64,000 bases of DNA from Isurus oxyrinchus (lineage: Eukaryota), in the NCBI GenBank assembly GCA_026770705.1, contig JANJGN010000006.1:60202001-60266000 (forward strand), read 5' to 3'. Made by a program: the position numbers and the translations under genes. Shown here one piece after another: positions 2,981 to 33,803 of this stretch; positions within the stretch are counted from its first letter, which is position 1; every line of letters begins with the position of its first letter. The notes beneath the pieces were generated by a model that worked only from the letters and a program-made list of their open reading frames with translations, ran no database searches and was not told the DNA's origin.

Positions 2981-3080
2981 AATAAAAATAAAGTGATGGA
3001 AAACCTCAGCAGATCTGGCAGCATCTGTGGAGAGAGAAACAGTGCTAATGTTTGGAGTCCAATGTCACTTCTTCAGAGTT
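2981..3080 (-). mobile_element. Penelope-like element 3' tail with decayed hammerhead motif
   Basis: Reverse complement is aactCTGAAGAagtgacattggactccaaacatt...ctccacagatgctgccagatctgctgag, the same tail as 9479-9710 and 20005-20183. Confidence 0.65.
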
Positions 3081-8910: not shown

Positions 8911-9478
8911 ATCTGACAGAAAAAATAAATGCATATAAGGCCATAAGAATAGACTTTACCCATTTTAAGCACCTGAGTCAAATACTGATTTCTGTGTTGA
9001 TAATCCCATCTGACAAAGACATTGATGGGTTAAGTGGAGAAAGCTGACGCATCAGTTTACCTAATTTTTAGCTCCAAGTATTTCTCCAAATTGGTGTAAT
9101 CAGTGAATCTTTACCTCTGTGGTATTTTCAGATCTCACCTTGATGGACAGTGGTTTTTGCTATTGTCTTTGAGCGTTAGCCTTCTTTTATGGGAAGAATG
9201 AATTTGGAAATGTATTCATATTGAGGCTTGGTCAGCGTAAGTTCTAGAAACCTGTTTAAAATAAATGTGATAGGAACTGTAATAAAAATTCACCAATGAA
9301 ATTTTATGCTACTCAGGTAGCCACTGCAGCACTGCCAGAATGTGATGCATTTATGGAGGGCATTGCATTTGACCCTGAAATCATCTGAAGTGCTTATTTT
9401 CAAGGATTACATAATGTTCCGAACCCAGGCTGTTTTCCCTTCATAGCAAAGGGATTGTGAGACCAATGTAGCAACTTT

Positions 9479-9535
9479 TGTCCCTAAAACCACACCCCCC
9501 TCCATTTCTCTCCCCCCACCCAAACCCTGCCACCC

Positions 9536-9566
<31 letters not shown>

Positions 9567-9710
9567 ACACCTTAAACAAGCTTATATTTCACCCCTTCCT
9601 TGGATTCACCTTGTTCTGTTGAAGGGTCATGAGGACTCGAAACGTCAACTCTTTTCTTCTCCGCCGATGCTGCCAGACCTGCTGAGTTTTTTCAGGTAAT
9701 TCTGTTTTTG
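9479..9710 (+). mobile_element. Short Penelope-type retroelement insertion with 12-bp TSD
   Basis: TGTAGCAACTTT at 9467-9478 and 9711-9722. Contains a poly-C/(CA)n tract. The 3' about 100 bp is nearly identical to the reverse complement of 33036-33144. Confidence 0.85.
9612..9650 (+). ncRNA. Minimal type I hammerhead ribozyme-like motif (variant core)
   Basis: gtt CTGTTGA a GGGTC atgag GACTC GAAAC GTC aac: helix II of 5 bp, GAAA, palindromic ACGT helix III, GUC triplet, helix I gtt/aac. Confidence 0.6.
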
Positions 9711-9909
9711 TGTAGCAACTTTACAGCCATTCCTGCTGGGATGAGTTGACATGGCACAGACTGGGGATTGAAGCTGGGACTTTTCGGGTTGCTTTGTCTC
9801 AGTTCTGCAATATTAGGGAAAAAAGTCCACTGATCCATTAGCAGAGTTTGGTATTATATTTCATAAAGACAGCTATCATTTAAACTGAAAAATTCCAGCA
9901 GGAAGAATC

Positions 9910-10397
9910 ACAAAAGGTCAGCATGCAAGATATAGCAAATAATTAGGAAGGCAAATGGAATGTTGGCCTTCATTACGAGGGAGATGGAGTATAAAAGTAG
10001 GGAAGCCTTTCTACAACTGAACAGGGCATTGGTGAGACCACACCTGTATAACTGTTTACAGTTTTGGTCACTTTAAGGAGGGACATATTTGCATTGGAGG
10101 CAGTTCAGAGAAGGTTCACTAAGCTGATTCCTGGGATGAAGGAGTTGTCTTATGAGGAAAGGTTGGGCCTATACTCATTGAAGTTTAGAAGAATGAGAGG
10201 TGATTTTATCTCAACATATGAGATTCTGAGGGGGCTTGACAGGGTAAATGCTGACAGGATGTTACTCCTCATGGGGGAAATCTAGAACTAGGATGTACAG
10301 TGTAAAATTATGGGGTCTTATATTTATGACAGAGATGAGGGGGAATTTCTTCCCTCAGAGGTTGTTATTATTTGGAATTATCTTTCCCAGTAAGCAT
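9910..10397 (+). mobile_element. CR1 LINE (family A) ORF2 3' fragment
   Basis: ORF 10064..10285 reads LEAVQRRFTKLIPGMKELSYEERLGLYSL..RRMRGD. Confidence 0.85.
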
Positions 10398-10559
10398 TGA
10401 AGGCTGGGTCACTGAATCATGGCGGATTTACAGTTAGCGGGGCCCTGTGCTTAGCTTCATTTTTGGGACCCCCCAGGAACCAAAAGGCAAAGCCAAGAAA
10501 ATACACAAATTGTTCATTGCTCCTACACTTGTAAAAACATGCCTGTATGAATAATTGCC

Positions 10560-10900
10560 TTGTGAAATCCAAGTTTACCTCTTGTCTGAATGATGGTAAA
10601 GACGGTAAATATTGCGACGCAAGGCAAACAAACATGGGACTTGCTGCCAAGAAAAGCCAAAAACCAAGGGCAGATTGTACATAGATAGAGAGAGGGAGAG
10701 AGAGTGTCAGCAAGCAGGAGATGGAAGCTGACTAGATGCCCACTCGAACATCGATACGTCAGTCTGTTGTATTTTATTCAGAGACGGAGACAGCAGACTA
10801 GAGCCCTGCTCCGGTGCCAACAGTTTACTGAGGCAAAACAGCACCGACAACACATTTGTTACCTAGGAGACCCGAGAAACTTTGCATTTTACTGAGATCT
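10560..10900. promoter_or_regulatory. Candidate CpG-retaining regulatory segment (left half)
   Basis: Non-repetitive, with about 10 CpG in about 320 bp by eye against a CpG-depleted background, plus a GA tract. Confidence 0.3.
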
Positions 10901-12280
10901 GTCAGTGGTAGGGAAACTATCACGTCAACGGTAGGGAAACTATTGGAGAAAATTCTGAAGGAGAGAATCTATCTCCACTTGGAGGGACAAGATTTGATCA
11001 AGGATAGCCAGCATGGCTTTGTCGGTGAGAGATCATGCCTAACAAATTTGATTGAATTTTTTAAGGAGGTGACCAGGTGTGTAGATGAGGGTAGTGCAGT
11101 TGATGTAGTTTATATGGATTTCAGCAAAGCCTTTAACAAGCTCCCACATGGGAGACTTATAAAGAAGGCAAATGCACATGGGATACAGGGTAATTTGATA
11201 AGGTGGATTCAAAATTGGCTTAGTTGTAGGAGACAGAGGGTGATGACAGAAGGATGCTTTAGTGACTGGAAGCCAGTGTCCAGTGGCGTACCACAGGGAT
11301 CTGTGCTGGGTCCCATATTATTCGTCATTTATACAAGCGACATAGATGACTATGTGGGGGGTAGGATTAGTAAGTTTGCGGATGACATAAAGATTGGCCG
11401 GGTGGTTAACAGTGAAGTTGAGTGTCTTGGCCTATAGGATGATATAGACGGGGTGGTCAAATGGGCAGAAAAGTGGCAGATGGAATTTAACCCTGAATAG
11501 TGTAAGGTGATACACTTTGGAAGGAGTAATTTGACAAGGAGGTATTCAATGAACAGCATGACACTAGGAAGTTCTGAGGAACAAAGGGACCTTGGCGTGT
11601 GTGTCCATAGATCTCTGAAGGCGAAGGGGCATGTTAGTGGGGTGGTGAAAAAGGCTTTTGGGCCACTTGCCTTTATCAATTGAGGCATAGATTACAAAAG
11701 TAGGGAGATCATTTTGGAGTTATATAGATCCTTGGTGAGGCCACAGATGGAGTACTGTGTGCAGTTCTGGTTGCCACATTATAGGAAGGATGTGATTGCA
11801 CTGGAGGGGGTGCAGAGGAGATTCACCAGGATGAAACATTTAAGTCATGAAGAGAGATTGGATAGACTTGGGTTAGTTTCGTTGGAGGAGAGAAGACTGA
11901 GGGGTGACCTGATCGAGGTGTACAAGATTATGAGGGGCATGGATAGGGTGGATAGGGAGCAGCTGTTCCCCTTAGTTGAAGGGTCAGTCACGAGAGGACA
12001 TAATTCAAGGTGAGGGGCAGTAGGTTTATGGAAGGATGTGAGGAAAAACGTTTTCACCCAGAGGATGGTGATGGTCTGGAATGCACTGCGTGGGAGCGTG
12101 GTGGAGGCAGGTTGCCTCACATCCTTTAAAAAGTACCTGGATGAGCACTTGGCATGTCATAACATTCAAGGCTATGGGCAAAGTGCTGGTAAATGGGATT
12201 AGGTAGGCAGGTCAGGTGTTTCTCACATGTCGGTGCAGACTCGATGGGCCGAAGGGCCTCTTCTGCACTCTTTGATTCTG
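10901..12280 (+). mobile_element. Young 5'-truncated CR1 LINE with 8-bp TSD
   Basis: RT motifs SQHGFV, YMDFSKAF, GVPQGSVLGP and KFADD. Ends in the GATTCTG tail. TGAGATCT at 10893-10900 and 12281-12288. Confidence 0.92.
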
Positions 12281-12288
12281 TGAGATCT

Positions 12289-12800
12289 CATCACTCACTG
12301 GAAAATCTCAGAACAGTATCGCTCAGCAGAAGAACATGAGCTGCTCTTGTGGTTTCAGGACGGCCCACATTACAATCATTTAAATTAAAATCAAATGAAT
12401 ACTCCGCTCGAGGTCAATGTTTCAACCTCTGACCAAACTGGCCGAGTTTTTGCTGAAACTCGTCTCTCCACCAAAGCTTGCTGATTATTAAGAGAGAATG
12501 TGAATGTGCGGAATGAAGCTCTGGGACTGCCCAACATTTTACCTCCAACAACCGACCACAGTCTGTTTTTCAAACCAGTTTCTGGTGTCTTTCTGCGCTG
12601 GAGTGAGAGCTAAAGAATGATTCTGAAGATGTGACTATGAAACCAGCTGATAGGGTGTAACCCAGAGCAGTGACAGGCAAATTTATTTCTATTTATTTAC
12701 TGTCATGGAGTCTAACTCAATATTGAGGTAAGAAGCTCACCGTAAACGTGTGTGTGGATTACAATTCCTCCTGTCCCAGTATGCTGGGCTGGCACTTTTA
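12289..12800 (+). promoter_or_regulatory. Candidate CpG-retaining regulatory segment or non-coding exon (right half)
   Basis: Unique sequence with about 12 CpG in about 470 bp by eye. Strong donor GAG|GTAAGA at 12727/12728. Confidence 0.3.
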
Positions 12801-12828
12801 AAGCCACCTCATAGCTATACCAAAATTT

Positions 12829-13192
12829 AAAGACTTGCAATTATATAGCGCCTTTCACGACCCCAGCAGCCCCAAAGCTGTGCAGCTAATGAGGTACTTT
12901 TGAAGCGGGGATGTGGGAAATGCCATAGTCAATTTACATCCAGTAAGCTTCCATAAATAATGTGATAATGACCAGAATCTGTTTTGTGTGATGTTGATTG
13001 AGGGTTAAATATTGGCCAAGGATAACTTGCCTGCTCTTCTTCTAATAGCTTCAGGGATCTTTTACACCCAAAGGTTGCATCGCTGACAGGTCAGCAGTTC
13101 CCTGGAATATCTGTCTGGATGGGAGTGGGACCTGAACCCACAACCATCTGACCCAGATGCCAGACTGCTATCACCGGAGCCATAGCTGACAC
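12829..13192 (-). mobile_element. DeuSINE-like tRNA SINE
   Basis: Reverse complement head gtgtcagctatggctccggtgatagc...gggttcaggtccc (A/B boxes), Deu-like gtaaaagatccc...gaagagcagg...ggccaatatttaaccctcaatcaacatcac, and an L2-like tail. Confidence 0.7.
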
Positions 13193-13814
13193 CTTTAACC
13201 TGTGGCCCTGGCTATTCATTCAAATAACCAGTGAGCGAGCTCCCTACTTGCATTGGTGATCATGGGCTGAGGGGAGTGGACGGACTTCACTATTGTTGGG
13301 TAAAACCAATTGGTTCATCTTGTGCCCCTAGGGGTCTGTCTGCTCTAGGCTTGTTAACAAGTAGCACACTTTGTATCAGTGAGAAAGTATATATGGGAAG
13401 TGAGGATTTATCCAAAAAAGGGGGAAATATAATTGCTGCGGCAACCTGTTTGGAAAAGGAACAATTCCTAGCTACCTGTTCATATCATTTCTGAACATTT
13501 CAATCTCCATTCAAACTTACTTTTCTAGGCATCATTTTCCTGGTGAAATAGCAGAGTCTTACTATTTACTTTGTGAGGTTTGGCACAGTCCTGCTTTGCG
13601 AAATGATTATTTTTCAGGAAAGCGAGTGCTTCTGAAAGGTGTTTTCTTTAAATGTGTTTTTGATCAGAGGCAGAGATGTTGCCGAGACCACCCCAGGTGC
13701 CTGTTGTTCCCATCACACACGACTAATAACTAATTTACTCGACGCTTCCTCTTTTAACTTTGCAAATGCAGCATCAGTTCGCGGATGCAGTTTGAATGTT
13801 TTGAAATCCGCCCC

Positions 13815-14000
13815 TGCAATGAATATATTCAAACCTGAGTTAGACAGATTTATGATGGACAAGGGGAGTCTAGGTTTATGGGGAACAGGCAGGAAGGTGT
13901 AGTTAAGGCCACATCAGATCACGCATGATCTTATTGCCTGGCAGAGCAGTCTCAAGGGGCTGAATGGCCTACTCCCATTCTTATTTCTTATGTTCTTACA
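13815..14000 (+). mobile_element. CR1 3' UTR fragment
   Basis: ggggctgaatggcctactcccattcttatttcttatgttctta is a CR1-type tail. Confidence 0.65.
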
Positions 14001-16638
14001 AGCAGTGGAATGAATGAAGCACACATCAAATGTTTTGATTTATTTATCAGAGGTTGTAGATAACTAATCATAACGTGTTGTCTTGCTCGTATGCTAACAT
14101 ACTACAATTAGAATTTTCTGGAGAACTTCGGTAAGCAAAGAAAGATGTGATTTACAAAAGATAAATGGATATTCACCAGGGAATAATGGTTTTAGTTTTG
14201 CCCTTGAAGAAAGAACCACTTTTCTGGTTATGAGTCAGAAGATTAGGTTGTCGAAAAAAATGTCTTTTAAAGCATTTCATAATACCTTTACAATATTAGC
14301 TGCAAGGCATTCCTCCATTACTTGATTCTTTGGAAGGAAAAAGAAGAAAGCTTTCATTCATAATAGCGTCAGTCATAAGTGAAGAGACTTTTGTTATAAC
14401 ATGCAAAAAAAAGTCCGGGATATTTTTAAATTCAAACATTGAACCAAATAGCGCCACCATTCATGTAGCTGACCAAACACAAATCTGCATTACAATAGTA
14501 GTTTTAGTCAAATAGATGACATAAGATCTAAGAATTTTTTTATTTTCACTTTTTTAAACAATGGGGAAAAGCATTTTACATCAAAGTTATTGGACGGCTT
14601 CATTTGTTTATACCATGCTATGAAATAGCCAGGGGTTATAAAAGCATGAAGGAAAATAATAAGTCTGAGTCATTGTTACCGACATTACTTGATGTGCTGG
14701 CTTGTAGTGCTTTCATTGATTTCCTAGACTAAAGCTATTCTTCAGAGGTTACTCGATAGTGAACAGGAACTGAAAAATCGATATCAGACAGAAATTTCAC
14801 CATGCAAAGCAGGGAACAATAAAGTTCACAGAGGATAACAGACCATTACTGGAAGGATAAGTTGCTAACAGACCAGAAGTGTGAGGTGCATGCAGTGGAG
14901 ATGCTCATTGGGATTTGTGGGATCGCGGGCTGAGAGATTCTTAAAAAGCCTGGGATGGGGGGAACAAAGGCTGCTGATGTGATGAAGAGGACTAAAGTGC
15001 AGTAAGAAACAGCTCAGGGCCAGAATAAACAAACCTGCTGGAGGAATGACCCCTTAAAGGCTCCAGTGAAGACACCAACTTTGTTCAGTTAAGAATAAGA
15101 TGCTAAAGAGATGCCAGCTCAACCAGAGGTTGCTTATTGTCAAGAACTGGGAGGTTAAAAAACCTGTAACACACAAAACCAAAGGTTTTCCACAATCAAT
15201 AGAGGTGATCAGATATCTGACCATTGTACCTTCCCCAAAGAAAGTGGAATGCTCAGTTCTCTGATTGCTGTTACAGGGCATAGACTTTCCCAGAAAGGAA
15301 TTTTTTTGTAGGAGTAACTTGGTTTTTTTTCTGTGGCAGTAGTTACTCTATTGTTACTATGTTATTTGGCCTGATTGTGTCTGTTGCTGTGCTGTTTCAT
15401 CGTAAGACTTTAATGGTAGCATGTGGTAGCTTGTTACTGTAGGGCTAAACCAGTGAAAAATAACTGCTTGCAAGGAGCCTAGTAAAACTGATCTGCATCC
15501 CCTAAGAATGAAGCTCCTCTCTGGGAGTGCAGGATTTAGAATTATTCTGAAAGTATATATTTGTTAATTAGTTACCTGTAGATTAACAGAAGATTATTTG
15601 AGGTCTGTCTCTCTTTTGCCCCCACCACCCACACTCAAAACTACGCATTCACTCTGTCTCTCCGAAATAAATGTACTGTATTTACACTTCCCCAGTAATA
15701 TTTATGTACAAACACCTTAAATAGCGCCATTATAAAAGAGAGTTCAAACTTGCTTTCAACCTTTCCCTTTCTCACTATCATTTTTCCAGCATAGTACATG
15801 AAGAAAAATGCCTTTAGGACATCTACTGGCATGTTTAGTAATTAATGCATGGCAGCTGATGTACTAAAACACAGTAATTATGTATCCAGCTTTATTTAAG
15901 TTTCAATTCTCATTCATTTTTCGTACTATACAGAGGACTGTTGTTTTTACTACAAGAACATGGTCTAAGACTAGTGGCATTCCAAGGATGTGACATATTT
16001 GTGCACACTTTTCATTTTATATAACTGAATGATTGATTGAATTGAGGGCAAAGGATGAAAGGCATTAGGGAAACAACATTGACACTGGTGTCTTGAGACC
16101 ATTATTACATGTTTGACATCAGTGCACGGATATGTTATTTTGTCAGGTTGTTTCCCTCTAGTATCTATTCTGTTCTTCCTTACCATTTTGTGTTTTCCAA
16201 TTATCTTTTTAATTGATTTAAAAATGGAAAAATGGGATTCAGATGTCACGTTTGAAGAAAGAAATAATTCGCATTAGCTATCACTATCATGGTCAGGAAG
16301 TGGCTGCAGAGACAGCAGAGGCATGGTCAAAATATCCCAGAACTCACTGGATTCCAGGAGGGTTCCTGCGGATTGGAAAACCGCTAATGTGATGCCCCTG
16401 TTTAAGAAGGGAGGGAGACAAAAAACAGGAAACTATAGACCAGTCAGCCTAACATCTGTCGTTGGGAAAATGCTAGAGTCCATTATTAAGGAAGAAATAG
16501 CAGGACATTTAGAAAAGCTTATCACAATCAGATAGAGTCAACATGGATTTGTGAAAGGGAAATCATGTTTGACAAATTTGCTAGAGTTCTTTGAGGATAT
16601 ACCAAGCAGAGTTGATAAAGGGGAACCAGTAAATATAG

Positions 16639-17455
16639 CGAGGAATGTTCTGGATGACGTCCCGACATCACCGCGTGTCATTTCAGTTCGTCTGGCGCAC
16701 AGCCAGCAGGCGCTCAACTGTCAAAGGCCTATTAAGGCCTGTTAAAAACTAATTAAAACAGTTAAATGAGCTGCCTGTCCAACCTTAAAGTTGGCGGGCA
16801 GGCGAAGAGCCCAGGCGGCCTTCGCATTTTTCTTGAAACCTCTCCCTTCCCCCCACCCCACCCCCACTAAGGCTATCTGTACCTTGCTCATCCTGCTTTC
16901 TACCCTTAATGTCACCTATTAGCATATTTCTTAGCTAATATCACCACTGTCAACACCTCTTTGTCCTTTTGTCTATGACATCTTTTGGCTATCTCCACCT
17001 ATCACTGGCCCGCTATCCAGCTCTACTTGTCCCACCCCCCCCCACCCCCTTAAACCAGCTTACATTTCACCTCTTCTATTTTTCCTTAGCTCTATTGAAG
17101 AGTCATACAGACTTGAAACGTTAATTGTGTTCCTCTCTGCAGATGTTGTCAGACCTGCTGAGTTTTTCCAGGTATTTTTATTTTTGTTTTTATCCCTGAG
17201 GCAGCACTTAGCCTCAGGGAGATGAGTGTGCTCTTTCGCACGCATGCGCGCAAAAGAGCGCACTCCCGGCTTAGGGTATCACCCCACCTGCACAGGGAGC
17301 TTATAGTGCTTACTGGTGGATGTCATGCTGGGCAGGCTTAATTGGCCCACCTGCGTAAAATGGTGGTGCGCCCCCGATCAGGGGTGCCGATCGGAGGTGC
17401 GCCCGCACACGCCCGTTCCTGAGCTTCCCTCCCAACGGGGGGGAAAATTCTTCCC
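16639..17455 (+). mobile_element. Harbinger-type MITE, left end deleted
   Basis: Collinear with 24352-24867 and 57723-58401 (attaaggcc, ggcgaagagcccaggcggccttcgcat, gaaacctc). Right end is gaaaattcttccc. Confidence 0.7.
16843..17190 (+). mobile_element. Penelope-like 3' UTR/pLTR nested in the MITE
   Basis: Collinear with the reverse complement of 19110-19350. Tail ctattgaagagtcatacagacttgaaacgtt...ctgctgagtttttccaggtattttt. Confidence 0.75.
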
Positions 17456-19036
17456 AAGGAACCTGCAAGGAGTTATGGATAGGATAAGTGAGTGGGCAAA
17501 AACTTGGCAGATGGAGTTTAATGTAAGAAAGTGTGAGGTAAGAATTAAATGGAGAAAGATTCCAAAAAAATGCAGTACAGAGGGATCTGGGTGTTCTTGT
17601 GCTTGAAGCACAAAGAGTTAGCATGCAGGTGTAGCTAGTAATTAAGAAGGTAAATTGAATTTTGGCCTGTATTGCTAGGGGAGTTGGAGTTTAAAAATAG
17701 GGGAGTCTTGTTACAACTTTATAGGGTGGTGAGGCTGCACCTGGAATACTGTGTACTGTTTTAGTCCCCGTGTTTAAGAAAAGATGTACTGGCATTGGAG
17801 GCAGTTCAAAAGAGATTCACTAGGCTGATACCTGGGATGAAGGGGTTGGCTTATCCAGAACAGCTGAACAGGTTAGGCCTTTATTCATTAGAGTTTAGAA
17901 GAATGAGGGGTGATCTTATTAAAACATACAAGATTCTGAGGGGGCTTGACAGGGTAGATGTTGAGAAGATGTTTCCACTAGTGGGTGTTCCTCGAACTAG
18001 GGGACATAGTTACAGAATAAGGGGACACTCATTCAAAACTGAGATGCGAAGGAATTTCTTCTCTGAGGGTGGTGAATGTCTGGAATTCTCTACCCCACAG
18101 AGCTGTGGAGGCTGGATCACTGAAAGTATTTAATGAAGAGGTAGATAGATTTTTGAAATATCAGGGAGTTGAGGGCTATGAGGAGCTGGCACAAAAGAGG
18201 AATTGAGGCCTGGGGCAGGTCAACCATGATCTTTTTGAATGGTGGGGCAGGCTTGAGGGGCCGAATGGCCTCCTCCTGCTCCTATTTCTTATCTTCTTAT
18301 GGGTGCAATGAGTCAGTGACCTCTTTCTATACAGTAAAGGAGGGTTATGGAAATTACATTAATATGATGTACCCAGATTGCAGAAATAAAAATCAGACTT
18401 CTGAGACTAATGGGAAAAAGTAACATAATTTTTATTTTGCTTTCCATTTTCCCTTTTAATTATTTTAATTGAATTTACAAAACTCAAAACATAATTAGTG
18501 CCCAACAAATACAGTCCTTGGGGAAGGCCAGTAAGATGGGGCTCTTTCTTTCACTGAGTTCTGATTTGTCTTGGCCTTGAGGAAATAAAAATGTGATTAT
18601 GCAACCTCTCAAGTATTCTCTGGGAAGAGTTTGGTGGCTCAAATGTTAATTCTGGAAAGCTGGCCCAACTGAGAGAGTTTGGTTTGGATTTGGATTTAAG
18701 CCAGCCAAATTCCCAAAGCTTTGCTGCACTCTACCTCCGACTGACAGCCACTGTACTTGTGCTCACTGCTATTATTGTTGCTCCTCCTCCCGCAATTATT
18801 GTTGCCCAGGGAATGGTAAAGACTGGTTCCTCATGATGGCGAAGTTGTGCAGCTTTCAGCAGACACAGACACATCTGGATACCTGCATTCAAAGCAGCTT
18901 GCTAATCATGAATACCTGTCCCACTGTGACTATATATATTTGAAATTATATAATGGAGTATGGAAAGAGAATCTTCTGGTTTGGTTGGTTTCTGTCAAAC
19001 CTTTCAGCAATTTGGTGAATTGAGCCCTAGTTTTGG

Positions 19037-20183
19037 AACAAAAACAGAAAATGCTGGAAAAACTCAGCATGCTTAACAGAAGTAAAAACATGATGAAATT
19101 TATACTGTTTAAGATGGGTGGAGGAAGTGAAGCTGGATAGAAGGCCAGTGATAGATGGAGGCAAAGAAGAGATTGCCAGAGATGTCGTAGACACAGCGGT
19201 GTTAATGGTAGTGACACTAGCTAAAGGAGGTGCTGATGGTGACATTAAGGTCAGAAAGCAGAATATGATAATAGCAGGACAAGGGTAAGCACTCTGGAAA
19301 GAACAACATGAACAAGTGACAGATGGCCCTTGTGGGGTGGGGTGGGGGGAGGGGACGGTGGTGGAAATAAAGATTGAAAATAGAATAAAAGGTGGGGATA
19401 AAACGATGAATAAAAATGAAAAATAAAAATAAGTGGATAAAAATATAAATGAAAATGTATGTTGAAAAAGGGGATAAAAAAGGGCTGAGGATGGAGGAAA
19501 GAGTTCAGATTCTGAAGTTGTTGAACTCAATGTTAAGTCTGAAAGGCTGTAAAGTGCTTAATCAGAAGATGAGGTGCTGTTCCTCCAGTTTGCGCTGGGC
19601 TTCACTCGAACATTGCAGCAGGCCAAGGACGGACGTGTGGGCATGAGAGCAGGAAGGTGTGTTGAAACAGCAAGCGACAGGAAGGTCTGGGTCATGCTTG
19701 TGGACAGATTGAAGGTGTTCCGCAAAGCGGTCACTCAGTCTGCGTTTGGTCTCTCCAATGTAGAAGAGACAGCATTCGGAGCAGCGAATACAGTAGACCA
19801 AATTCAATGAGGTGCAAGTGAAGCACTGCTTCACCTGAAAGGAGTGTTTGGGCCCTTGGACGGTGAGGGGAGAGGAGGTAAAGGGGCAGGTGTTGCACCT
19901 TCTGCGATTGCATGGGGAGGTTGTCGTGAGAGGGGGATGAGGTGTTGGGGGTGATTGAGGGGTGGACCAGAGCGTCCCGGAGGGAACAGTCCCTACAGAA
20001 TGTCAACAGTATAAATTTCATCACATTTTGACTTCTCTTTAGCTCTGAATAAGAGTCATACGGACTTGAAATGTTAACTTTTTTTTCTCTCCAAACGTGC
20101 TGTTAGACCTGCTGAGTTTTTCCAGCATTTTCTGGGGGTTTTTTTTTCAGATTTCCAGCATCCACAGTATTTTGCTTTTTTGG
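19037..20183 (-). mobile_element. 5'-truncated Penelope-like retroelement with inverted pLTR and 9-bp TSD
   Basis: Minus-strand body at 19037-20004 and a plus-strand inverted copy of the tail at 20005-20183. TAGTTTTGG at 19028-19036 and 20184-20192. Confidence 0.85.
19500..20004 (-). pseudogene. Penelope-like GIY-YIG endonuclease with upstream Cys motif
   Basis: PCNRRRCNTCPF followed by LVYCIRC...FYIGETKRRLSDRFAEH...RKLEEQHLIF (ORF 19562..19834). Confidence 0.85.
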
Positions 20184-20415
20184 TAGTTTTGGGAGCTGAG
20201 ACCTGCTATTTACTGCTTGTTTCTTGGGCTGGGGGATGTATGGCATGGTGTCCTTTGGGGGTCATTGTTAGTTCTCAAGAATGTATGTAAAGGAATCACA
20301 ATCTCAAAATTTGCAATCAACAGCAAAATAGAGAATATAGGATAGTAAGCCTCTTTTGTAAGCAACTGCATTGTAAATTGATCTATTGATCTCAGTTTTA
20401 AAATTTTCACTCTTG

Positions 20416-22705: not shown

Positions 22706-23417
22706 AATATAAGATGAATTAACTCTTAAGTTTGTGTTTATTGTTGAAAATAAGTGCTTAATTTGCCTTGAATGGTGACTACTCTACACCCAGACCGGTG
22801 TTTGGGCTGTTTGGACGTTGAAGAGATCGAAATTACGGGCTGTATGTCCATTAAATCAGATACAGTTTAATATTATATCGTAATCACAGAACCTCAAAAA
22901 CATAAATGCTCTGATTATGTGGTTAATATGTAAAAATCAATCCTTTTTCCCTGGTTAGTTAGTTTCTTCATGTTAATTTCAGAAATCAATCTTATAGTAT
23001 AATCAACCCTTCAAAAGCATTTTTGCATAAGATGCACAGCTCCTTAAGAGTAAATTATCAGGTGCTAAGCAGGAGAATTGATTATCAACCATTTAATTTT
23101 CCGCTTTCATATTTTTATTAATCAATAATGATAATCAATTGTTAACTCCAAGAACATTTTGATATTTGAAATTTATCATGGTAATGCATTTCTTGTACAG
23201 GCAATAAAGCTTGTGAATTGTAATTAGGGATTTTTGTAGCACTCTTCTGTGCATTTGTGGAATGAGTGGTTTAGAGTTAGGTTCTCTTGATGATAGCAGG
23301 GGAAGGATTTACATTCCACAAACTGTGGAATTAATATGATTGTTTCAAACTGGAATAATGAAAGTCAGCTATAATTCCAGAAATAAAACTGAGACATAAG
23401 AGGAAAGAGTAAGAGAT

Positions 23418-23600
23418 CAAAAATATGTTGATACTGGAAATCTGAAATAAAACAGAAAATTCTAGAAATAGTTAGCAGCAGCGTTGGCATCTGCGAGAGG
23501 TTAACAGGTGATAAAGTTATGATGAATCACTTCAAAACGTTAACCAGTTTTTCTCTTTCATAAACTGTGCATTTCCCCTATTTTCTGTTTTTATTTTAGG
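23418..23600. mobile_element. Head-to-head pair of Penelope-type tails (palindromic relic)
   Basis: Left arm ctggaaatctgaaataaaacagaaaat (minus tail). Right arm aaacgttaacc...ttttctgtttttatttt (plus tail). Confidence 0.5.
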
Positions 23601-24351
23601 AAAGTATAGTTCCAGTTGCTTGAAATAGACATTGTACTTAGGAATTTTATACCGTATTGTGATTTACTTTGAGGTCTGTGTTACACAGTAACTGGTCAAA
23701 AGTGTATGCGGTTTATGTCACAGAGGTAGAGGTGTGTCAAGTGCAGCAGTGTCGTAAACTATAAAAATAGTCAACACCAATGGACATGGAAAAAGTAATT
23801 TCTTACTACTTTGATAAAATGTGAGTGCAATAAATTACATTTCAGTGAAGATTCTTCATGTTTGTTGATTTAGATTCTGTTCCTGTTATTTGTTTGAAGC
23901 AGATGATCATTTCAGATGGATGGCAGGCTTCCAAGGTTTAATCAGAGTGAAATAATTCTGTAAAATAAAAACTCATACTGCAATTATACTGAATTTTGTT
24001 TCACAGTGTTTAATAGAGATAATCAATAAAGGGGCTTTTGCACAAATGTACAGTGCTCATCAGAATGAGTGATGGTGCTAGAAATGGAAAATTTGTGCTG
24101 TGAACACATGCTGAGAACTGAGTTAAGTAAATCCAAACTCTCTTCACATGGGACATTAGCAGGGAAGGGAGACATTCAACTCATTGGTCTAGACTAGGTT
24201 AAAACCAAGATCCTAAAAGTGAAGTGATCCTACATCAAACTACTTGGCTACACATTCCCCAACATAGAAAAAGACAGAAGACAGCAAAGAGGTGTTTGGT
24301 ATTGGTTCATGAGCTACAACAATAGACTCTAGTTTCTGCACTCAGAGACAC

Positions 24352-24867
24352 AGGCCAGAATCTTCGGGTCGGCGTGTGGGGAATGGGCCCCGCTCACCGA
24401 CACATAAAATGATGCACGGTGACATTGGGCGTGCGTCCTGATGTCACCACGCATCATTCCGATTTTCAGTTCAGCGGGTGCACGCTGGAGTTGGCTGCGC
24501 TCCCGTCGAACTGCCAAAGGCTAATTAAGGCCATTTAAAAAGTAATTAACGGAGCTGCCCATCAACTTTAAGGTTGGCAGACAGGCGAAGAGCCCAGGCG
24601 GCCTTCGCATATTTCATGTAACCTCATCCACGGGCGGAATGAGGTTTCATGAAGGTTTTTAAACTTTAATGAATAATTTTAATATTTATTGACATGCCCC
24701 AGCTTATGTGACACGGTCTTAAAATGTTTTCTTTTCTTTATTTAAACTTTTCAAAATCAGCTCTGTGCCTCAGGGAGATTTCTGCGCTCTTTCGCACATA
24801 GGCATGAAAGAGAGCAGGCCCCAACTCAGCCTCCTCCCCCCGCCCGCATAGAGAGCGCTCAGCTCCC
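24352..24867 (+). mobile_element. Harbinger-type MITE, right end truncated
   Basis: Starts aggccagaatcttc and is collinear with the 16639 and 57723 copies. Confidence 0.7.
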
Positions 24868-25410
24868 CAGAAGGTTGATTCCTGGTCTAGGTTAGCATTT
24901 ACACTTATACATTCTCAAAGTAACATGTATTCATCGCGCAGAATTTTACCCTTGGCATGCGGGATACACCAGTGCATGAAATAAAGCGCTTTGACATCAG
25001 ATGAGTGATATTTCGCTAGGCGGGTGTGCGATGAAGACAGAGGCATGCCCGCCATTAATTAACCGGCCAGTTAAGGCCCTTGAAAGACCAATTGACTCCG
25101 TGTTTACGTAGCCCATGCAATTTTTAAGCGGTCGCATGGGCAAAACAGGCAGGCGGGCAGGTCACGATTTGTAAAACCTCATCCATTGGCAGGATAAGAG
25201 GGATCAGTGGGCTTCACAAAGCAAATAGTGAATAGTTTCAAATATCGCTGCTGCTTGCTTCTGTGAACAGGACAGCTTCATTTTGCTTCAGTGCTGCATT
25301 CTGAGCATTTAGAGGCTTCAGTTCAGGACTCAGTGTTGCCTTCCAGGTCCCCGGAGGATTCACATTGCATGAAGCCTTCCAGGTATCAGACCGCCTTCCC
25401 TTACCCTGGT

Positions 25411-26592
25411 AAAGGGGATTGTGGCCTCCACTGAGGCACCTTCTCTGAGGAGTAAAAGAGGGCTAGAAGGGGGAAGAGGCCAGCTGTCCCTATTCAGCTT
25501 GCAGGAAAGACACCTGTGGGAGGAGAGGCACAGGCACAAGGGGTGCAGGTCCAACAGGAAGGCCAAGGTGGAAGGGGCATCAGAAGATGCCACTATCCTG
25601 CTGCGATGCAGCTACCTCAATATGTCTGAGGTGCAATGCTGAAGGAGGCTTCGTGTCTCAAGGGAGACAATGACCTCCATCTGTCAGAGGATTGGACCTG
25701 AGATCAGCTCTGACAATGTGGGTGGACACCCAATGCCAGTGGATCTGAACGTCACAGTGGTCCTAAAGGTCTATGCCTCCGGCTCTTCCCAGGGCCCAGT
25801 GGGAGATCTGCATGGATTCTCCCAATCAACTGTCCACAGTTGCGTCAAACCGGTGACAGACACTTTGTTCAGGCGTGCATTGACTTTCATTCGTTACTGT
25901 ACAGACAAGGCCAGCCAGGCTGAGCGAGCCAGAGGCTTTGCAGCAATTACTGGCTTCCCCCGCGTCCAGGGTGCAATCAAATGCACACATTTGACCATCA
26001 AGACACTAGCTGGTGAGTCAGAAGCCTTCATCAATAGCTTCCACTGCATGAACGTGCAGATAGTCTGTGACCATAGGATGCAGATTCTGCAAGTCTGTGC
26101 AAGTTACCCTGGCAGCTCCCATGACGCTTACGTACTGAGATACTCCCAGGTGCTGAAGCTCTTCAATGCGCCAGCCTGGCTAGATGGATGGCTGCTGGGT
26201 GACAAGAGCTATCTGCCACCCAAGAACAGAGGCCGAGCAGCAGCACAACAGGAGCCATGCCTCCACAAGGGCGGTGGTAGAGAGAACCATCGGTCATCTC
26301 AAGATGCACTTGCAATTCCTGGACTGTACAGGGGCTGCACTACAATACCCCCAGATTGTGTGTCACTGATAGTGGTTGCATGCTGCGCTCTGACAATCTG
26401 GCACTGGAAAATGGGGATGCAGTGAATGAAGAAGATCTTGACACAGCTGCACAGGTAACAGACAATGAGTCCAGTCGTGAGTACGAGGATGAGCACGCTC
26501 AGGAGAATGCTGAGGGCATAGATGCACATCTGAGAAATCTCCATGCAGGCAGGGACACCCGGGAAGCTTTGATCCAACACTCCTTCAGCTAG
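25411..26592 (+). pseudogene. Harbinger DDE transposase (HARBI1-like), frameshifted
   Basis: GFPRVQGAIKCTH (first catalytic D lost), MNVQIVCD, YPGSSHDAYVL, LLGDKSY, RAVVERTIGHLK. Internal stops and frameshifts. The start position is approximate. Confidence 0.85.
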
Positions 26593-26818
26593 CCCACCAA
26601 GTAAGAACCACCACCACACGCCAGGGCTGCAGGCTCCATATTCAGCCCCTAACAGGACCAATTCCTGGGTCAACAACATACACTATGTGCCACTGCAATA
26701 AGATTGAAGGAGTCACACATCCATCATTACAACATGGCTTATCTTGCACCTACAGAACAAATGAAACATCCGAAGGCCAGTTGCAAAAAAAAATGGGGGA
26801 AACAAATATCGTCCATGA

Positions 26819-28607
26819 TCAGGCTGTGTTATGCTTAAGGTGCTTTAAGTTTTCGCTTGTGGGTGCTCCGTCTAGGTGCTCCCCCTCCCTGGCATCGAGA
26901 TTGGAGACAGCCTGGTCACTCTGCAGTCCTGTTGGCCTTGATGACCTTGTCGGGCATCCTCTGGCCTGTGAAGCCTGTGCTGACCGTACCTGGGAGGGAA
27001 CGGCCAGTGCCATGGCTGGCATCTCCCCAGTCGCCGCAGCCTCTTTAGATGCCACAGTCACTGGCAGTGAGGCAGAAGAGCTGCTGCCATCATCCAGAGC
27101 GCCCTGAGAGGAGCCCGCAGTGAATACAGGCAGCTTATGCGCCAACATTAGGTGGCTCTGGACCTCACTGCTCACCATTGATGGACGGACACCTAGCTGG
27201 GATACTGGGTGCCTAATCCATCTCCCACAGTGACACTGACCAGCTGAGGTCATTGCTTTTGTGAGGCCCTACAGGTCCCAGTGCATCCCCAGGAACCCTT
27301 GATTGAGCCCTGGAGGAGCCTCTCCATGAGAGTCACCCCTCTCTCCATGGAGGAGGCATTGTTCTCAGCCATGAGAGTTAATGCAGTGTTTATGCTGCAC
27401 ATGGACTCCCCACAATGGAGACCATGGTATGCAAACCCTCATTTGTCTCTGTCTGATCCTCCCGCACACCCTGCTGGACGTCCAGCAGCTGCTGCCTCAG
27501 GTACACCTCCAGAGGCCCATCATCAGCCATCGCCTGAGCACTGTCCTGTTCCCCAGCAGTCCTCCAACTGCCGGCACCCTGGGCATTCTCTGCCTCCGCC
27601 TGCACCTTAAGCGAGTGTGAAGTGCCCTCACCAATGTACAGTGAGATACTAGATGCCGATCTTATGAGGTGCTGGTATCTGTGCTAGTGCCTGCTTCACA
27701 GAGAGGGTGTGACGCTGGTGCGTGCTCAGCATGCTGGTCCTCAGAGGTCAGGGGTGGGCCTTCAGGCTTCTCACAACAAGGAGCGGCTGGTGAGCCTAAA
27801 AGGGAGAAGAAGTCATTAGACAGTCAGTATGCATGCCTGGCGCCCTGATGAGATAGAGATCTGCATCATTGTGCCCTCGTCTTTCCATTATCAATGGGCA
27901 TTCCAGGTTCAACACACATCAATATACAGACTACACTGCAAAGGCTGCAAGAAGCCACATTCTCACCTCAGTGCACTGCACTCTTACCTCCCTCTGGCAC
28001 CCCAACCTCACCACGGCCGCTCGACCAAGGTGAATGGTACCTCTCCAGCTCCAGGGCCCCCTGCTCATATCTACTGAGGATGAGGAGGTGTGGGGGTCCC
28101 GCTGCAGTCTGTGACCTCTCTGCATTGTTATGGGATGTTTTCTCCTGGAAGGATAGAGGAGCATTGATTAGTTCCCCCTCTACCTGCAGCGCCATTGCAG
28201 CCTGGCCAATCCCACCTGAGGAACACCTCGCAGGGCTCAGCCATTCGTGACCCTGGAGCTGCAAGGCACTCAGTTCAAGCAGCCAGGGCTCACTCCCTTG
28301 GCCAGATCCTGCCTCATTGACATTTGCCACTCACATTGTAACACCTCTGAGGTTCAAAGGGTGATGGGCAGCTCTTAACTGTTCTACGAAGTGACCCATG
28401 CCAACACGGTACTTACCCTTCCCGATCGCGGGAGATTGTTAAGCACTTCTGGCACGGGACCCATGTGCGCCTCACCACGTCATGGCAGCTGACCCTGGAT
28501 GCCACCTCCTCCAGGAGGGCAGTGAGGCACTCATCCGAAAAATGCGGGGCCGACTGCCCCGCCGACCTGCCCTCCTGCCTGCTGCGTCCACCCGCTGCGA
28601 CATCCAT
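26819..28607 (-). pseudogene. Harbinger Myb/SANT-like DNA-binding protein, three exons (28607-28417, 28144-27988, 27795-26819)
   Basis: APHFSDECLTALLEEV; donor GTAAGT at 28416; acceptor ttccAG at 28145; EKTSHNNAERSQTAAGPP; donor GTAAGA at 27987; acceptor ttttAG at 27796. Confidence 0.75.
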
Positions 28608-30289
28608 GCGCACAGCTTCTGCATCCTTCGGAGGCAGCCTTCCAAGGGCTGCTGAGGCTGCATTTGAATCGGCTACCGGATCACGATTGGACCTGGCGGA
28701 CATTAAGCTTCCGCCCTCCCCTTTGCCCTCATTGAAAGGCCACGTCCCACTCTGGATGGGCCTTAATTTGCGATGCGCTGCCGATCGCGGGCGGTGGTTG
28801 GCTTCCCAATGCCCCCTGCCGAGCCTGCACGCCAAGGGTAAAATTCTGCCCATCCTGTGGAGAGAAAACTGGCAAAGGAGGTAACTGCTTCCTGCAAAGC
28901 CCTAATGTTTTGTGCCTCATTGTCATGCAAAAGGGCTTCATTTTCCCCATCAGCCCCCTAGTGTACCAAGTCAGGTGAGAGTTGAAATAGAAGGGCATAC
29001 AAAGAGATGCTTGTAGTATCGATTCTTGCCACTCAGTTCCTAGGCACTAGCGTGCTCCTTCGAGCTCCACAAAAATAAATTCAGACTTTCATTCTGCGCT
29101 TCTCTTGAGCTAGATGCACAAGAGCTACATGCTCTGCCCAGGCTGAGTCCTAAAATGGCAACTGGGATCTTTTGAACACGCACAGAGAGCACATCATGGG
29201 AAGTTGTGGGCATGCAGAACGTGATTTTCTACCACTAAAGAACTGGGCTGCAATTAGAACATAGCTCCCCACTGGAAGTGGAAGATCACAGAATCATCTT
29301 ACTCTGAGCGTCGATGCAAATGATTAGCTGCTGGATTACTTCATACCATTAATGGGCAATAATTGTGAAACCATTGCAACGGGTTTCTGTAAAGCAGATA
29401 ATTTGTAGCTGGCTATTGTAAAACTTTGGTGTGGCTAGTACATTTAAAGTTTCAAGTTGATAAATTGAAAAGGAGAATTAGTTCCCAGAAGGAGTCACAA
29501 TAAACCATATTCATTCAACAAGAAAGGTCACTTTTCCAGGAAAGCTTGACAGGATTAGCGATACAGAAATCAGTAATATTTTCATTCTTAGCAATCATGA
29601 AGCATGTTTTTAGTTTAAAACCTGTGAGATACATTGTTACAGCCTTATTTCTCAAACCCAGAGGTTTGCACTACTCAACTAATTAATCAGATTAAACATA
29701 ATTTTATAGCTTATAGTGGTCGAAGTTGACTATTTGTGACAAGTTTCTGGAGAAAATCCCGTACGTTGGCTCGAACATTCAGTTGCATTTTTTTGGCTGC
29801 GCAGGAGTACAGGGCTCTTTATCAGAATGGCAAAACACAAATAATTAAAATTGTTTTCAAAATCATCTTGTTGTTTTTGAAGATAGTGAACTTCTGTTTA
29901 AGACATGGATCAGTTACATCACTGCAAGCCAGGTATAGAACCCCCGTTCTGGTCAGCCTGTTTCATATCTGGCTCCTTTAGAAGTTGATGATAAGTGTAT
30001 TTTGTGCAGTTGGTTATTGATGTGAGCTATAGAGTTGGTTACTGTTGCACGAGATTGTGACCTTGCCCTCAACCCCGACAATCCTTACATAAAGTGATTT
30101 CCTCCTTTCCAGATGTGCTGGAGGTATCGTGGTACAGTAAGTGTATGAAAAGGGAGGGAAATTAAGTTGAATCATCTTAGCACACACTTTGTGGGCCCCT
30201 GAATTAAAAAAAAATACACCTCTCATTTAGGGATAGAATGAATGTTTTGCGCACAATACTTAAAAATAGTCTCTAACAAACCCAGTTTG

Positions 30290-30500
30290 AGCTAAAAATA
30301 AAACCGGTCCCCCACCCACAATAATTTCTAAAATAAACGTCATCTCCCACTCTATCTCTAAACTAAATGTCATCTCCCACAACTACCTCTAAAATAAATA
30401 AACATATTTTCCCCCTCCACACAGCTATCTAAAACCTTTCATCCACCGTTTGCTTGAAATGGATCTCTCATCACTCTCTTTCCAGCCAGCTAAAATAAAT
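30290..30500. repeat. Degenerate minisatellite, unit about 30 bp
   Basis: tctaaaataaacgtcatctcccactctatc / tctaaactaaatgtcatctcccacaactacc / tctaaaataaat. Confidence 0.6.
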
Positions 30501-30921
30501 CGTCCAACCACAAGTAAGTTTCTTCTAGCTTCCATAGGATTCAGTACTTAGTGTTGTACGATTTGGCTCAAAGCAAAGAAAAACTTAGAACATGGGGTCA
30601 AAAGCATACAATGCAAGGGCATAGGTTAAAACAACTATTTTGAATTAATTTGACGTCCGCAATAAAGGAACTTGGAAGAATTTGGATCATTTTGAGCTTG
30701 TGTCTGTGCCTGTTGAGGCAAAGCTGACACTCTGCAGATTCTTCCAGGCATCTTTGTCCTAAAAGGAACTGCATCAACATCTTCAGGATTATGGTCAACT
30801 GTTAGCTGAAAATTTACTAGTAAAATTTAATGGTAAAATGAAGTTGACTATGTGCAAGCAAGAAGATGGCTGTGTTGGTCGTAATCTTTGTGTTGGTGCA
30901 CAGGCTTTTGCTACAGAAATG

Positions 30922-31648
30922 GGACTTGAATTTTAGCGCCTTCCAGGGGTGGGAAAGTGGAAGTGGGTAGGTGCAGAATTTAATGTCGCTAGCCTGCATG
31001 CCACTTACATCGTCTTCACCCCCAATTCATTTTCCCAAAGGTGGGATGGTGTTCGGCAGGGCTACCAGCCCACATGCAGTGGGTAGCCTATTACATCACT
31101 TAAAGGCCAATTAAGACTTGTTTACAGAGTATAACTGGGATTTTCCAGTTGGCCTCCAGCACCCTGCAGGTGGCAAAGGATGGTTTAGCTGTCTAGAGGT
31201 GGCCTCAGGGCAGGAGACCAAGGGGCCAGGGCTCCAGACAGGCCCAGAGGTCTTCCCTGCCTGCCTGGATGCAGCAGGAACAGTTGGCCATCCTATGACT
31301 AGATCCCTTGCACACAGTGGTGGACTGGCTTTAAAGGCCATTTTTCATTTTAAATTTCAAACAGTTAGTTAGGGGCAGGGGGGGCATCTCCGTTTTTGGG
31401 ATAACTTCTCTCTCACGAACCTGCCGTGACATTCTGCTGCTGCTTTTAAGCAGGAAAGACTCCTACTGGTTCTCCAGTTTTGACAGCTTGCCTGTCATCC
31501 ATAATTGGATAGCAAGCCCATCATTGACCACTAATTTAATAAATCAGGGAAAATCACAAAGAGTAACTGATTCCTACACAGTGCGGACTTTTGACCCCCA
31601 TTTGAGTCTGACAACAGGGTTCAGAAGCCCATGGCCGAAATCTTGCAC
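30922..31648. mobile_element. Old Harbinger-like MITE
   Basis: Starts ggacttgaatttt, contains ttaaaggccaattaa motifs and ends gaaatcttgcac. TIR and TSD are degraded. Confidence 0.4.
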
Positions 31649-31811
31649 TTGGGGTCTGAAAGCTACAGCATGTGGGCACCTAGAGACCTGAATACAAATT
31701 GGTCTAGGTCAACATTTATTTTTATTGTGGACTGGAAATTCACTCAAATCAAGAATTCTACAGTCTAGTTTTGCTCTCTACTCCCTATTCTAAACCTGTT
31801 TCTACATGAAA

Positions 31812-32000
31812 GTAGAAAAGAAACCAAAAGTGCTGGAATAACTGAGGGTTGATTAGTGTCTGCAAAAGAAAGACAAGTTTTCAAATATCACTACCAAAAT
31901 TGATTCTGATAAAGGTTCACACCTGAAATGTTAACCTATCCTTCAGACTTTGACAGACTAATTTCCAGCATTTTCTGGTTTCATTATCAGGTTTCACAAT
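31812..32000. mobile_element. Head-to-head pair of Penelope-type tails with hammerhead relic
   Basis: Arms aaaagtgctggaa / ttccagcatttt. Core CTGATAA AGGT tcac ACCT GAAAT GTT at 31906-31932. Confidence 0.55.
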
Positions 32001-33035
32001 TTTTCCTTTACCTCAGCATACAGAGGCATGGGTTGCTTTTGAGTCACTCTTGAGTAATGGATTAGGCTTTTCCCCAAAAGGTGTCACGTTGCACTTACCT
32101 AGGGAATTGGGAGGCTTGGAAAACTGTAACTGTTGATATTTCTTAAGTATTTTAGTGAGCTGCTTAGAGTTATTGAATTAATGGGTAAGATTCGAAATCT
32201 ACTCATAATAAAATGTACTTCTTTCCCACCATCACAGTAAATATTTAGCTTTCAACAATGTTTTAAATAGTCTCTAACACGTGGTTGCTGACTCACTACT
32301 CGGTTTGTTTCTCTATTATTCATGCTGTACCTAAGTTCACATCTGAGCATTTCATAACTGTTTGTGAGTATTATAAATTGGTCAATTTAAAATGGGTGAT
32401 TCAATTGGTTGGGCAGTGGACACTAATTCCTATTATATATAGGTGATACTCAAACTTCATTTTAACCGTGCATGTTCTTAAACTTACTGCCTAGTGTGGA
32501 AGTCTGTCTCCTTCTCGTATGCTGTAGAGGCATACAGACTCTATGTGGAAATATGGCAGCCTTAAGATCAGCAAAGTAGTCCTAGTGCTTTGCTGTTTAA
32601 TCTTCTCCTGTTTCCTCTTGTTCCACCTCAAAAGCTGCATGTTCCCACATCCTTCAACTATGTGAAAGGTTGAGAATGAATTCATTTCTGATCGTCTAAA
32701 TCTGAACCATGTGCACAAGCTGCCTTCCAAAATTGTAAACCTTGATTGACAGATGCGACCTTACAAATCTTGGAGAAAGGAAGAATTATGGTGTGATGAA
32801 ACATTATAGCAAATCAGTTGAGAAAGAAGAAATCACAATTAGTTCAAAAGACAAGAATGCGTTTTCTATACAGAATTACTAAGAAATGCTTGTATACAAA
32901 AATGTGTGAGTTTCACAGCATAGTTATCTGGTGTAGACAAGAGTATGCATAGAATTGATGGGAGGATCCTATATTATATCTTGATTATGATAAATACAGA
33001 CTTTCTTTTTATCTATGCAGCATGTAGAAATAGAT

Positions 33036-33144
33036 AACAAAACAAAAACAGAATTACCTGGAAAAACTCAGCAGGTCTGGCAGCATCGGCGGAGAAGAAA
33101 AGAGTTGACGTTTCAAAGTCCTCATGACCCTTCGACAGAACTAG
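33036..33144 (-). mobile_element. 109-bp Penelope-type insertion with 14-bp TSD
   Basis: ATGTAGAAATAGAT at 33022-33035 and 33145-33158. Nearly identical to 9613-9710. Confidence 0.88.
33103..33142 (-). ncRNA. Minimal hammerhead ribozyme-like motif (CUGUCGA core)
   Basis: Reverse complement AGTT CTGTCGA a GGGTC atgag GACTT t GAAAC GTC AACT, with helix I AGTT/AACT. Confidence 0.6.
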
Positions 33145-33803
33145 ATGTAGAAATAGATGGCTGTCAGTGAACAGCGTGGCAGTAATTCAACGAGGCTTTT
33201 CATTTGGCATCTTAACCCAAGTGGGAGAATCTTGAACTATAGTGCATGTATTCTCCATTCTTTATCTAAATGAAATACAAAGCCCTAATTTACATTAAGG
33301 CTTCAGATGGCATTGTGAACTATCCAAGCTTCATTACCCTGTACTGACCTTGAGATTAGATCATTGTCTTAAATTCAGTCAGTGGTGTTATTGTTTGTAC
33401 TGGAAATAGCATATGGTGTATTTTGTTTAGGTGACTTACATAATTTTGTGGTGCAATGTGCAGATCAGTTTAAGATGTTGATATCTGATTCATGATGGCA
33501 TCTTACATGATAGGACCATCAGCATTTCAAGGGTGATTTTGAATAGTCAAGCGGGAAGAATTATGCTGTCAGTGTCCAGTAATACAGTAAAATTATATGT
33601 ATTTTCTGCCTTGTTTTAGGGAATGGCCCATCATATTTCAAAAGACTCATTGTAACAACAATAATACAAAATAATGGCCTGAAAGGGGAAATTTCCAGGG
33701 GTTGCCTTTCCAGCTTTGTTGATCCTTATGGGCATCACATGGAGGGAAAGGAAAAATGAATCTGAAGAAGAACCAGCCAGAGTAGTTGATAATCACAGAT
33801 GTT

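Follow-up and report, generated by a model that had tools for sequence, protein, structure and literature searches.

A derived uridine at core position 6 is fixed in the hammerhead-like motif of an abundant Penelope-like element of Isurus oxyrinchus

We analyzed a 64,000-nucleotide stretch of the Isurus oxyrinchus genome (assembly GCA_026770705.1, contig JANJGN010000006.1, positions 60,202,001 to 60,266,000, forward strand; hereafter the window), which carries short insertions with a hammerhead-like ribozyme motif that belong to a Penelope-like element (PLE). Published work is cited by PMC number from excerpts of the papers concerned. Motif positions are numbered after the consensus in Fig. 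S3 of PMC4209133, and a base at position 6 is written T6 in DNA and U6 in RNA. The first insertion, copy A (9479..9710, plus strand), is a 232-bp, 5'-truncated 3' end of a PLE pseudo-long terminal repeat (pseudo-LTR). It contains part of the 3' untranslated region (UTR), the hammerhead, and downstream sequence up to the first start site of reverse transcriptase (RT), and an exact 12-bp target-site duplication flanks it (9467..9478 on the left, 9711..9722 on the right). Its minimal type I hammerhead-like motif (9612..9650) comprises helix I (9612-9615/9647-9650, one mismatch, 5' strand TGTT), the core CTGTTGA (9616-9622) with T at position 6 (9619), an extra A (9623), helix II (9624-9628/9634-9638), and GAAAC-GTC (9639-9646), with a predicted cut site at 9646/9647.

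Copy B (33036..33144, minus strand) is a 109-bp stump that starts 2 nt before helix I, as first described, and stops at the first RT start site. Its 14-bp target-site duplication is likewise exact (33022..33035 at the 3' end, 33145..33158 at the 5' end). The motif occupies 33103..33142, with the core CTGTCGA at 33138-33132 and T at position 6 (33135). The preliminary description had presented A and B as near-identical copies that retained their CpGs and a complete fold. They are 95% alike, but over only about 103 nt, as copy A extends further into the 3' UTR. The quoted fold was a composite, and neither copy has all of it: CTGTCGA and an AGTT strand had been ascribed to both copies, but copy A has CTGTTGA and TGTT, and CTGTCGA occurs in copy B only. 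In copy B, GACTTT replaces GACTC, which damages the 3' strand of helix II and its CpG. A third copy, C (17088..17190, plus strand), consists of the hammerhead and downstream part with upstream continuation into the 3' UTR. It has T6 (core CTATTGA, at 17092), as had been noticed, but it belongs to an older T6 subfamily (helix II GAGTC/GACTT, U17) and shows decay at G5 as well.

The insertions are 5'-truncated pseudo-LTR ends of an autonomous, very abundant and recently active PLE, which the preliminary description had missed, and do not form a separate short element. Longer copies extend upstream directly into a reading frame for RT and a GIY-YIG endonuclease. Of 20 stretches examined around hits, L061 (G000:C1:460500-470400) contains three motifs at intervals of 3,353 and 3,340 bp; the open frames that lie between them encode 865 and 926 amino acids. 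Motif pairs about 3.3 kb apart also occur in L062 and L064. The intact tandem units carry T6. L061 is a head-to-tail array of two near-identical units in which both frames are open; the family is thus very young and a source-like arrangement exists. The 926-residue protein matches RVT_1 (E 7e-08) and, weakly, a C-terminal GIY-YIG domain (E 9e-04; 19.9 bits, under the Pfam cut-off of 22.6), and many of its homologs carry PF01541. It has a DKG motif and a C-x4-C-x2-C linker ahead of the GIY-YIG motif, and its closest named homologs are from the shark Chiloscyllium punctatum (65-69% identity). The first Met lies about 170 nt downstream of C3.

By sequence, the layout is that described for Neptune and Nematis PLEs (PMC8557442). 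The features of endonuclease-bearing (EN+) PLEs are present: one open reading frame (ORF) that holds RT and GIY-YIG, tandem pseudo-LTRs, two classes of 3' ends, and inverted 5'-truncated partners. With Neptune-type EN+ elements, as excerpted, it shares the single RT ORF with C-terminal GIY-YIG, DKG, the Cys-rich linker before the endonuclease, partial tandems, the inverted 5'-truncated partner and a 30-40 bp tail at one end (PMC8557442). It differs in its clear 12-15 bp target duplications and non-canonical hammerhead core. The CX2-5CxxC zinc-finger-like linker between RT and endonuclease is described for Neptune but is common to Nematis (PMC8557442); the likeness to either is by features common to both, compared feature by feature rather than on a tree. 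A retained spliceosomal intron near the pseudo-LTR was also considered. Splice-like signals are present, and the element region occurs in organisms A, B and C (4 contig runs), but no GT..AG was found among the 8 joints listed from the 4 transcript contig runs, and these contigs, the form of all 23 runs listed, yielded no usable RNA ends. In the older subfamilies (window 17115-17145), a branch-point-like TTAAC over the cut site, a pyrimidine run and a CAG before an ATG resemble a 3' splice site. The youngest subfamilies (window 9639-9669; L061:5087-5200) have lost both U17 and the AG, and the ATG after the splice-like site opens a frame of just 10 codons in the youngest. About 30 nt beyond the splice-like site, the T6 groups show a CAG/GTA that resembles a donor.

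To count position 6 genome-wide, we searched the 4.98-Gb genome (where the window lies on the contig labelled C6) for a 31-nt pattern in which positions 6 and 7 were free. The pattern had 75,518 exact matches and its reversed control none. T6 was found in 73,778 of them (97.7%), A6 in 113, and C6 or G6 in 1,627 (by subtraction). A control change, T to A at position 4, was present in 164 copies, so A6 occurs no more often than random mutation would produce it. By their upstream or downstream marks, twenty A6 loci that we examined are spread over several subfamilies, and three A6 copies in young contexts were scattered over the T6 ladder of the ORF-end tree described below. A hidden A6 master among the young copies is excluded by these counts and by this spread. 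U6 is fixed in the source elements. The suggestion that it is a family trait rather than decay was therefore borne out, the family majority being U6 and not A6.

Position 6 was then set against element age, as the preliminary description had proposed. The age sample was made up of the window and 120 position-chosen 10-kb stretches (1.264 Mb in all), which we searched with a profile restricted to sequence downstream of the core. Of 125 hits, 99 were aligned and 26 were left out as short or low-scoring. Groups were defined on downstream sequence alone, and divergence is non-CpG. Position 6 of the older subfamilies is known from this sample and 8 further loci. Among readable cores, A6 was found in 4/4 and 20/21 copies of the two oldest groups, the larger of which is 13% divergent, and a small third group had two A6 and one C6. 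A mixed group at 6% divergence had 7 T, 7 A and 1 G, and here T6 accompanies a second downstream mark. T6 was then found in 6/6 copies at 5% divergence and in 34/35 at 1.2%. Because the oldest groups have A6 and the younger ones T6, U6 is derived and heads the latest expansions; it descended from A6 subfamilies.

A tree of 42 ORF ends has the shape of a ladder whose end branches become progressively shorter; the old A6 rows, which have long branches, group together (91/88). One of 43 rows was left out, and the root falls on a long, unreliable branch that we did not use; the age order comes from divergence. Position 6 also changed a second time. An upstream-only query that ended before position 6 recovered C6 (core CUGCUGA) at 26 of 30 loci in a blind test, one of the 30 being the query itself and some overlapping loci found earlier. 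As this offshoot has amplified, position 6 has changed twice in transposing lineages. The C6 subfamily has a distinct upstream mark (L229-L283, e.g. G000:C7:44288493-44288557). Two copies (L157:5134 and L186:3977) combine A6 with the helix II G and C17 seen in the young family, which may reflect parallel change or an exchange among sister subfamilies. Within one genome, the dated series runs A6, U6/U7/U17, U6/U7/C17, U6/C7/C17 and C6.

The remainder of the motif was compared between subfamily majorities. C3 U4 G5 and G8 A9 plus one extra nucleotide before helix II are unchanged. A 4-bp helix I and a 5-bp helix II with G10.1-C11.1 are maintained. GAAAC-GTC (GTT in older groups) provides G12, A13, A14, A15.1, the palindromic 15.2-16.2, U16.1 and H17. 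An A at position 6 is the sole feature of the minimal hammerhead ribozyme (min-HHR) consensus that is lacking, and the motif is therefore a variant and not a canonical min-HHR. Five motif changes separate the older from the youngest T6 majority: N7, two loop II letters, U17>C, and a helix II A-U pair that became G-U. A sixth difference was left out as a CpG-decay artefact of a small majority. Four of the five fall in the 7 of 38 positions that the PMC4209133 consensus leaves open (P=0.002); the 13 core positions show no change. Per site, this is 4/7 for free positions against 1/31 for the others, and that one change keeps helix II paired. Apart from position 6, the core is identical in the much older A6 groups.

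The insertion ends describe how the element was copied. We used 39 young insertion events from the position-chosen sample, after removal of 2 of 41 that were old copies (81-82% identity). Measured from C3, the farthest 5' ends lie beyond -45 in 17 events, at -44..-11 in 5, at -10..+13 in 16 and further down in 1. The 3' ends form two clusters, at about +90..+102 and +129..+134 (near +95 and +131). RT would accordingly start 65-100 nt downstream of the cleavage site; the fold may be an RT recognition site, as first suggested. Twelve of the 39 events are head-to-head pairs with an inverted 5'-truncated partner, one of which starts at +31. Nine of the 12 pairs (L110, L123, L138, L155, L157, L172, L189, L218 and L224) are flanked as a whole by a 12-15 bp duplication, and in all nine the two arms end at different 3' sites, one at the short site (about +78..+97) and its partner at the long one (about +126..+137). 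Such a pattern looks like the genomic trace left when both target strands are primed at two internal RT start sites, as described for the Anolis element. The inserted cDNA derives from RNA that was uncut at the hammerhead.

The preliminary description had raised the possibility of a lineage that transposes without self-cleavage. The uncut templates fit this proposal, but older A6 copies show them as well, and their 5' ends fall in the same zone (20/38 and 6/14, a share inflated for the oldest group, where an upstream reference is absent), so that neither feature is due to U6. A U6-specific truncation hotspot is excluded for the same reason. Of the 39 farthest 5' ends, 16 lie near the fold, but there is no sharp stop at helix I: the ends spread over -10..+13, 10 of the 16 are inversion junctions, and a transcription-start run-off at helix I is unsupported. 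The zone stands far above the 65 nt downstream of it (1/39) but not significantly above the next 34 nt upstream (5/22; P=0.08). A comparable system is PAc, a Poseidon element of Anolis carolinensis (PMC11167929). As excerpted, its two internal RT start sites are mirrored in our two classes of 3' ends, both target strands are extended, and the template is uncut at the hammerhead. PAc belongs to another PLE clade, and its ORF starts inside the hammerhead, unlike the distant first Met here; its cleavage was shown to be protein-assisted (PMC11167929), whereas that of our motif is putative.

Secondary structure predictions were made for isolated motifs and for motifs in context. In isolated U6 motifs, helix II had a probability of 0.75-0.98 in three of four and 0.08 in one with a decayed CpG, and helix I reached just 0.07-0.46. 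On the youngest background, A6 is predicted to form a 5-bp helix between positions 4-8 and 15.2-1.1 (probability 0.96), and opening the core would cost 5.6 kcal/mol with A6/C7/C17 against 2.0 with U6/C7/C17. A lone A6 swap into the youngest sequence is thus predicted to misfold and would mislead as a rescue, and the proposed comparison of U6 with A6 on the young consensus would be confounded because A6 is predicted to pair the core with the cut site. An alternative helix of G5-A9 with U16.1-C1.3 was rejected (probability at most 0.29). Relief from misfolding as the origin of A6U is unsupported. In these models, U6 looks to have been entrenched later and not selected for folding.

We give about even weight to the reading that the U6 hammerhead is a slowed, dimer- or protein-assisted RNA that may still cleave itself. 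The pseudo-LTR hammerhead of the source lineage went from A6 to U6 with all other core letters retained. By analogy with the Anolis element, the RT/endonuclease would nick both target strands 12-15 nt apart, reverse transcription would have two internal starting points on the RNA, about 65 and 100 nt past the cut site, and RT would copy through the uncut hammerhead. It would often stop or switch template just past the hammerhead, which would yield stumps of about 110 bp or head-to-head pairs. Because templates must be uncut at the hammerhead, a slower ribozyme would cost little or even help. Residual cutting, in the processing of tandem transcripts, would keep the other core letters under selection, and the later C7 and C17 would make U6 hard to reverse, since A6 is predicted to pair the core with the cut site. 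A natural A6C hammerhead has low but detectable activity favoured by Mn2+ (PMC3088659; PMC7151607), and a PLE hammerhead is protein-assisted and unnecessary for target-primed reverse transcription (TPRT) in vitro (PMC11167929). In some RNA viruses cleavage has a role in starting translation (PMC13725137), and it may possibly have such a role here.

Several observations weigh against this reading. Cleavage of the U6 motif is a prediction from its letters. In one ribozyme, A6C gave an observed rate constant of 3.55e-6 against 0.3 per min at 0.3 mM Mg2+ (PMC7151607), and minimal PLE hammerheads are weak even with A6 (PMC4209133). There is no genomic footprint of cutting: none of the 39 young events has its farthest 5' end in the cut-site interval (+28..+34), and among 261 arms, 3 end at +33/+34 and none at +30. 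With 30 nt of upstream and 75 nt of downstream sequence, helix I was favoured in none of six copies and helix II only in two A6 copies. In the older background where A6U arose, no folding gain is predicted (2.2 vs 2.6 kcal/mol). Four-fold ORF sites changed at 9 of 69, so that core conservation since U6 arose is not significant (P=0.16 for the 13 untouched core sites, P=0.07 for core plus helices). The 30 nt downstream of the hammerhead are about equally conserved, and a non-catalytic constraint on the whole region is possible.

A constraint of that kind is the substance of the strongest rival, which we regard as a serious possibility short of being probable: U6 abolished catalysis, the element transposes without self-cleavage, and the fold and its letters are kept for recognition by an element protein or, at the DNA level, as an internal promoter of the pseudo-LTR. 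The two alternatives first proposed, an A6U hammerhead variant and transposition without self-cleavage, are not mutually exclusive. All young copies that cover the cut site span it uncut, the sequence downstream of the motif is equally conserved, and a further change at position 6, to C, arose in a subfamily that amplifies, as would be expected of a free position. In a deep scan, CUGA-turn mutants had low activity (PMC9901934), catalytic mutants leave TPRT by the Anolis PLE unaffected in vitro (PMC11167929), and canonical hammerheads are absent from Naiad and most Chlamys PLEs, which proliferate all the same (PMC8557442). Against recognition alone, the later changes obey the ribozyme consensus: N7 varies (T, C, G), position 17 stays H on its way to GUC, and helix II stays paired (P=0.002). 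The catalytic guanines G8 and G12 (PMC9901934; PMC6155905) are untouched, and natural position-6 variants keep activity (PMC3088659; PMC7151607).

It is rather improbable, in our judgement, that the hammerhead is dispensable and unselected, with U6 and C6 as passengers fixed in successful masters too recently for the core to have decayed. The short time is in its favour, as four-fold sites have diverged by only 13% since the older T6 and 0/13 core changes give P=0.16; the succession of masters seen in the ladder-like tree would also fix neutral changes. However, the motif changes concentrate in the free positions (4/7 vs 1/31, with pairing kept), and the core other than position 6 is the same in much older A6 groups. 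Independent mutation within a family that has A6, or a short non-autonomous element in its own right, would suit two window copies that are short, partly decayed and flanked by target duplications, but both are refuted by the genome-wide T6 counts, the scatter and rarity of A6, the longer copies that enter the RT and GIY-YIG frame, and the T6 tandem array of L061.

The window contains further remains of the family. Decayed copies of older A6 subfamilies lie at 20041..20143 (plus strand, core CTGAATA) and 2975..3080 (minus strand, core CTGAAGA, ends approximate). An Rfam scan of the window gave no hammerhead match at E<=1 and two chance matches only. Other repeat families with 75-90% identity occur on both strands at 5835-6910, 34750-35682, 47822-48960 and 51317-52348. 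Two 154-nt inverted arms (48506-48659/49718-49871) are 99% complementary and lie 1,058 nt apart.

The hammerheads of PLE pseudo-LTRs are already known, and what is added here is a fixed, derived core variant at position 6. With the min-HHRs of PMC4209133 the motif shares its pseudo-LTR location, CUG..GA with the extra nucleotide, G10.1-C11.1, GAAA, the palindromic 15.2-16.2 without a helix III loop (dimer type), U-H at the cut site, a short helix I, and mass occurrence as single truncated motifs. The difference is U6 here (C in the offshoot) and A6 there. All 44 rows compared in Fig. S3 have A6, but the descriptor required it and no shark is among them; the core variant reported in the excerpted text is U3-A8 (PMC4209133). 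The A6C hammerhead of phage Bcep176 (PMC3088659; PMC7151607) shares a natural substitution at core position 6, and the CUGCUGA core of the C6 offshoot equals the one that Naghdi et al. engineered into another ribozyme (PMC7151607). Bcep176 has a single phage ribozyme with measured low activity and a preference for Mn2+, whereas in our element it is chiefly A6U, and the minimal dimer-type motif that bears it is fixed in tens of thousands of retroelement copies. In the literature searched, which did not extend to the 2017 work of Luense, Weinberg and Breaker on hammerhead dimers of PLEs (where such variants could appear), no natural A6U hammerhead is reported for PLEs or sharks. Passages of a 2026 preprint that deals with retrozymes and PLEs mention none either.

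The hammerhead-like family that is most abundant in this genome escapes searches with CUGANGA descriptors. The hammerhead of PLEs is weak in vitro and dispensable for TPRT in one reconstituted system, and some have suggested that it is a passenger. About 74,000 copies with a changed 'invariant' letter and the other catalytic letters spared form a natural allelic series that separates a need for cutting from a need for the fold. The predicted misfolding of the obvious A6 rescue construct is a warning for work with this series. Tentatively, and as an idea we think rather unlikely to hold in full, position 6 could be a natural tuning knob of Penelope hammerheads: swaps from A6 to U and then C would be compensated by the element protein or by dimers, a slower cut would leave more RT-competent RNA, and changes at positions 7 and 17 would lock the swap. 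If this is true, the dated series would be a ready-made experiment on why PLEs carry ribozymes at all.

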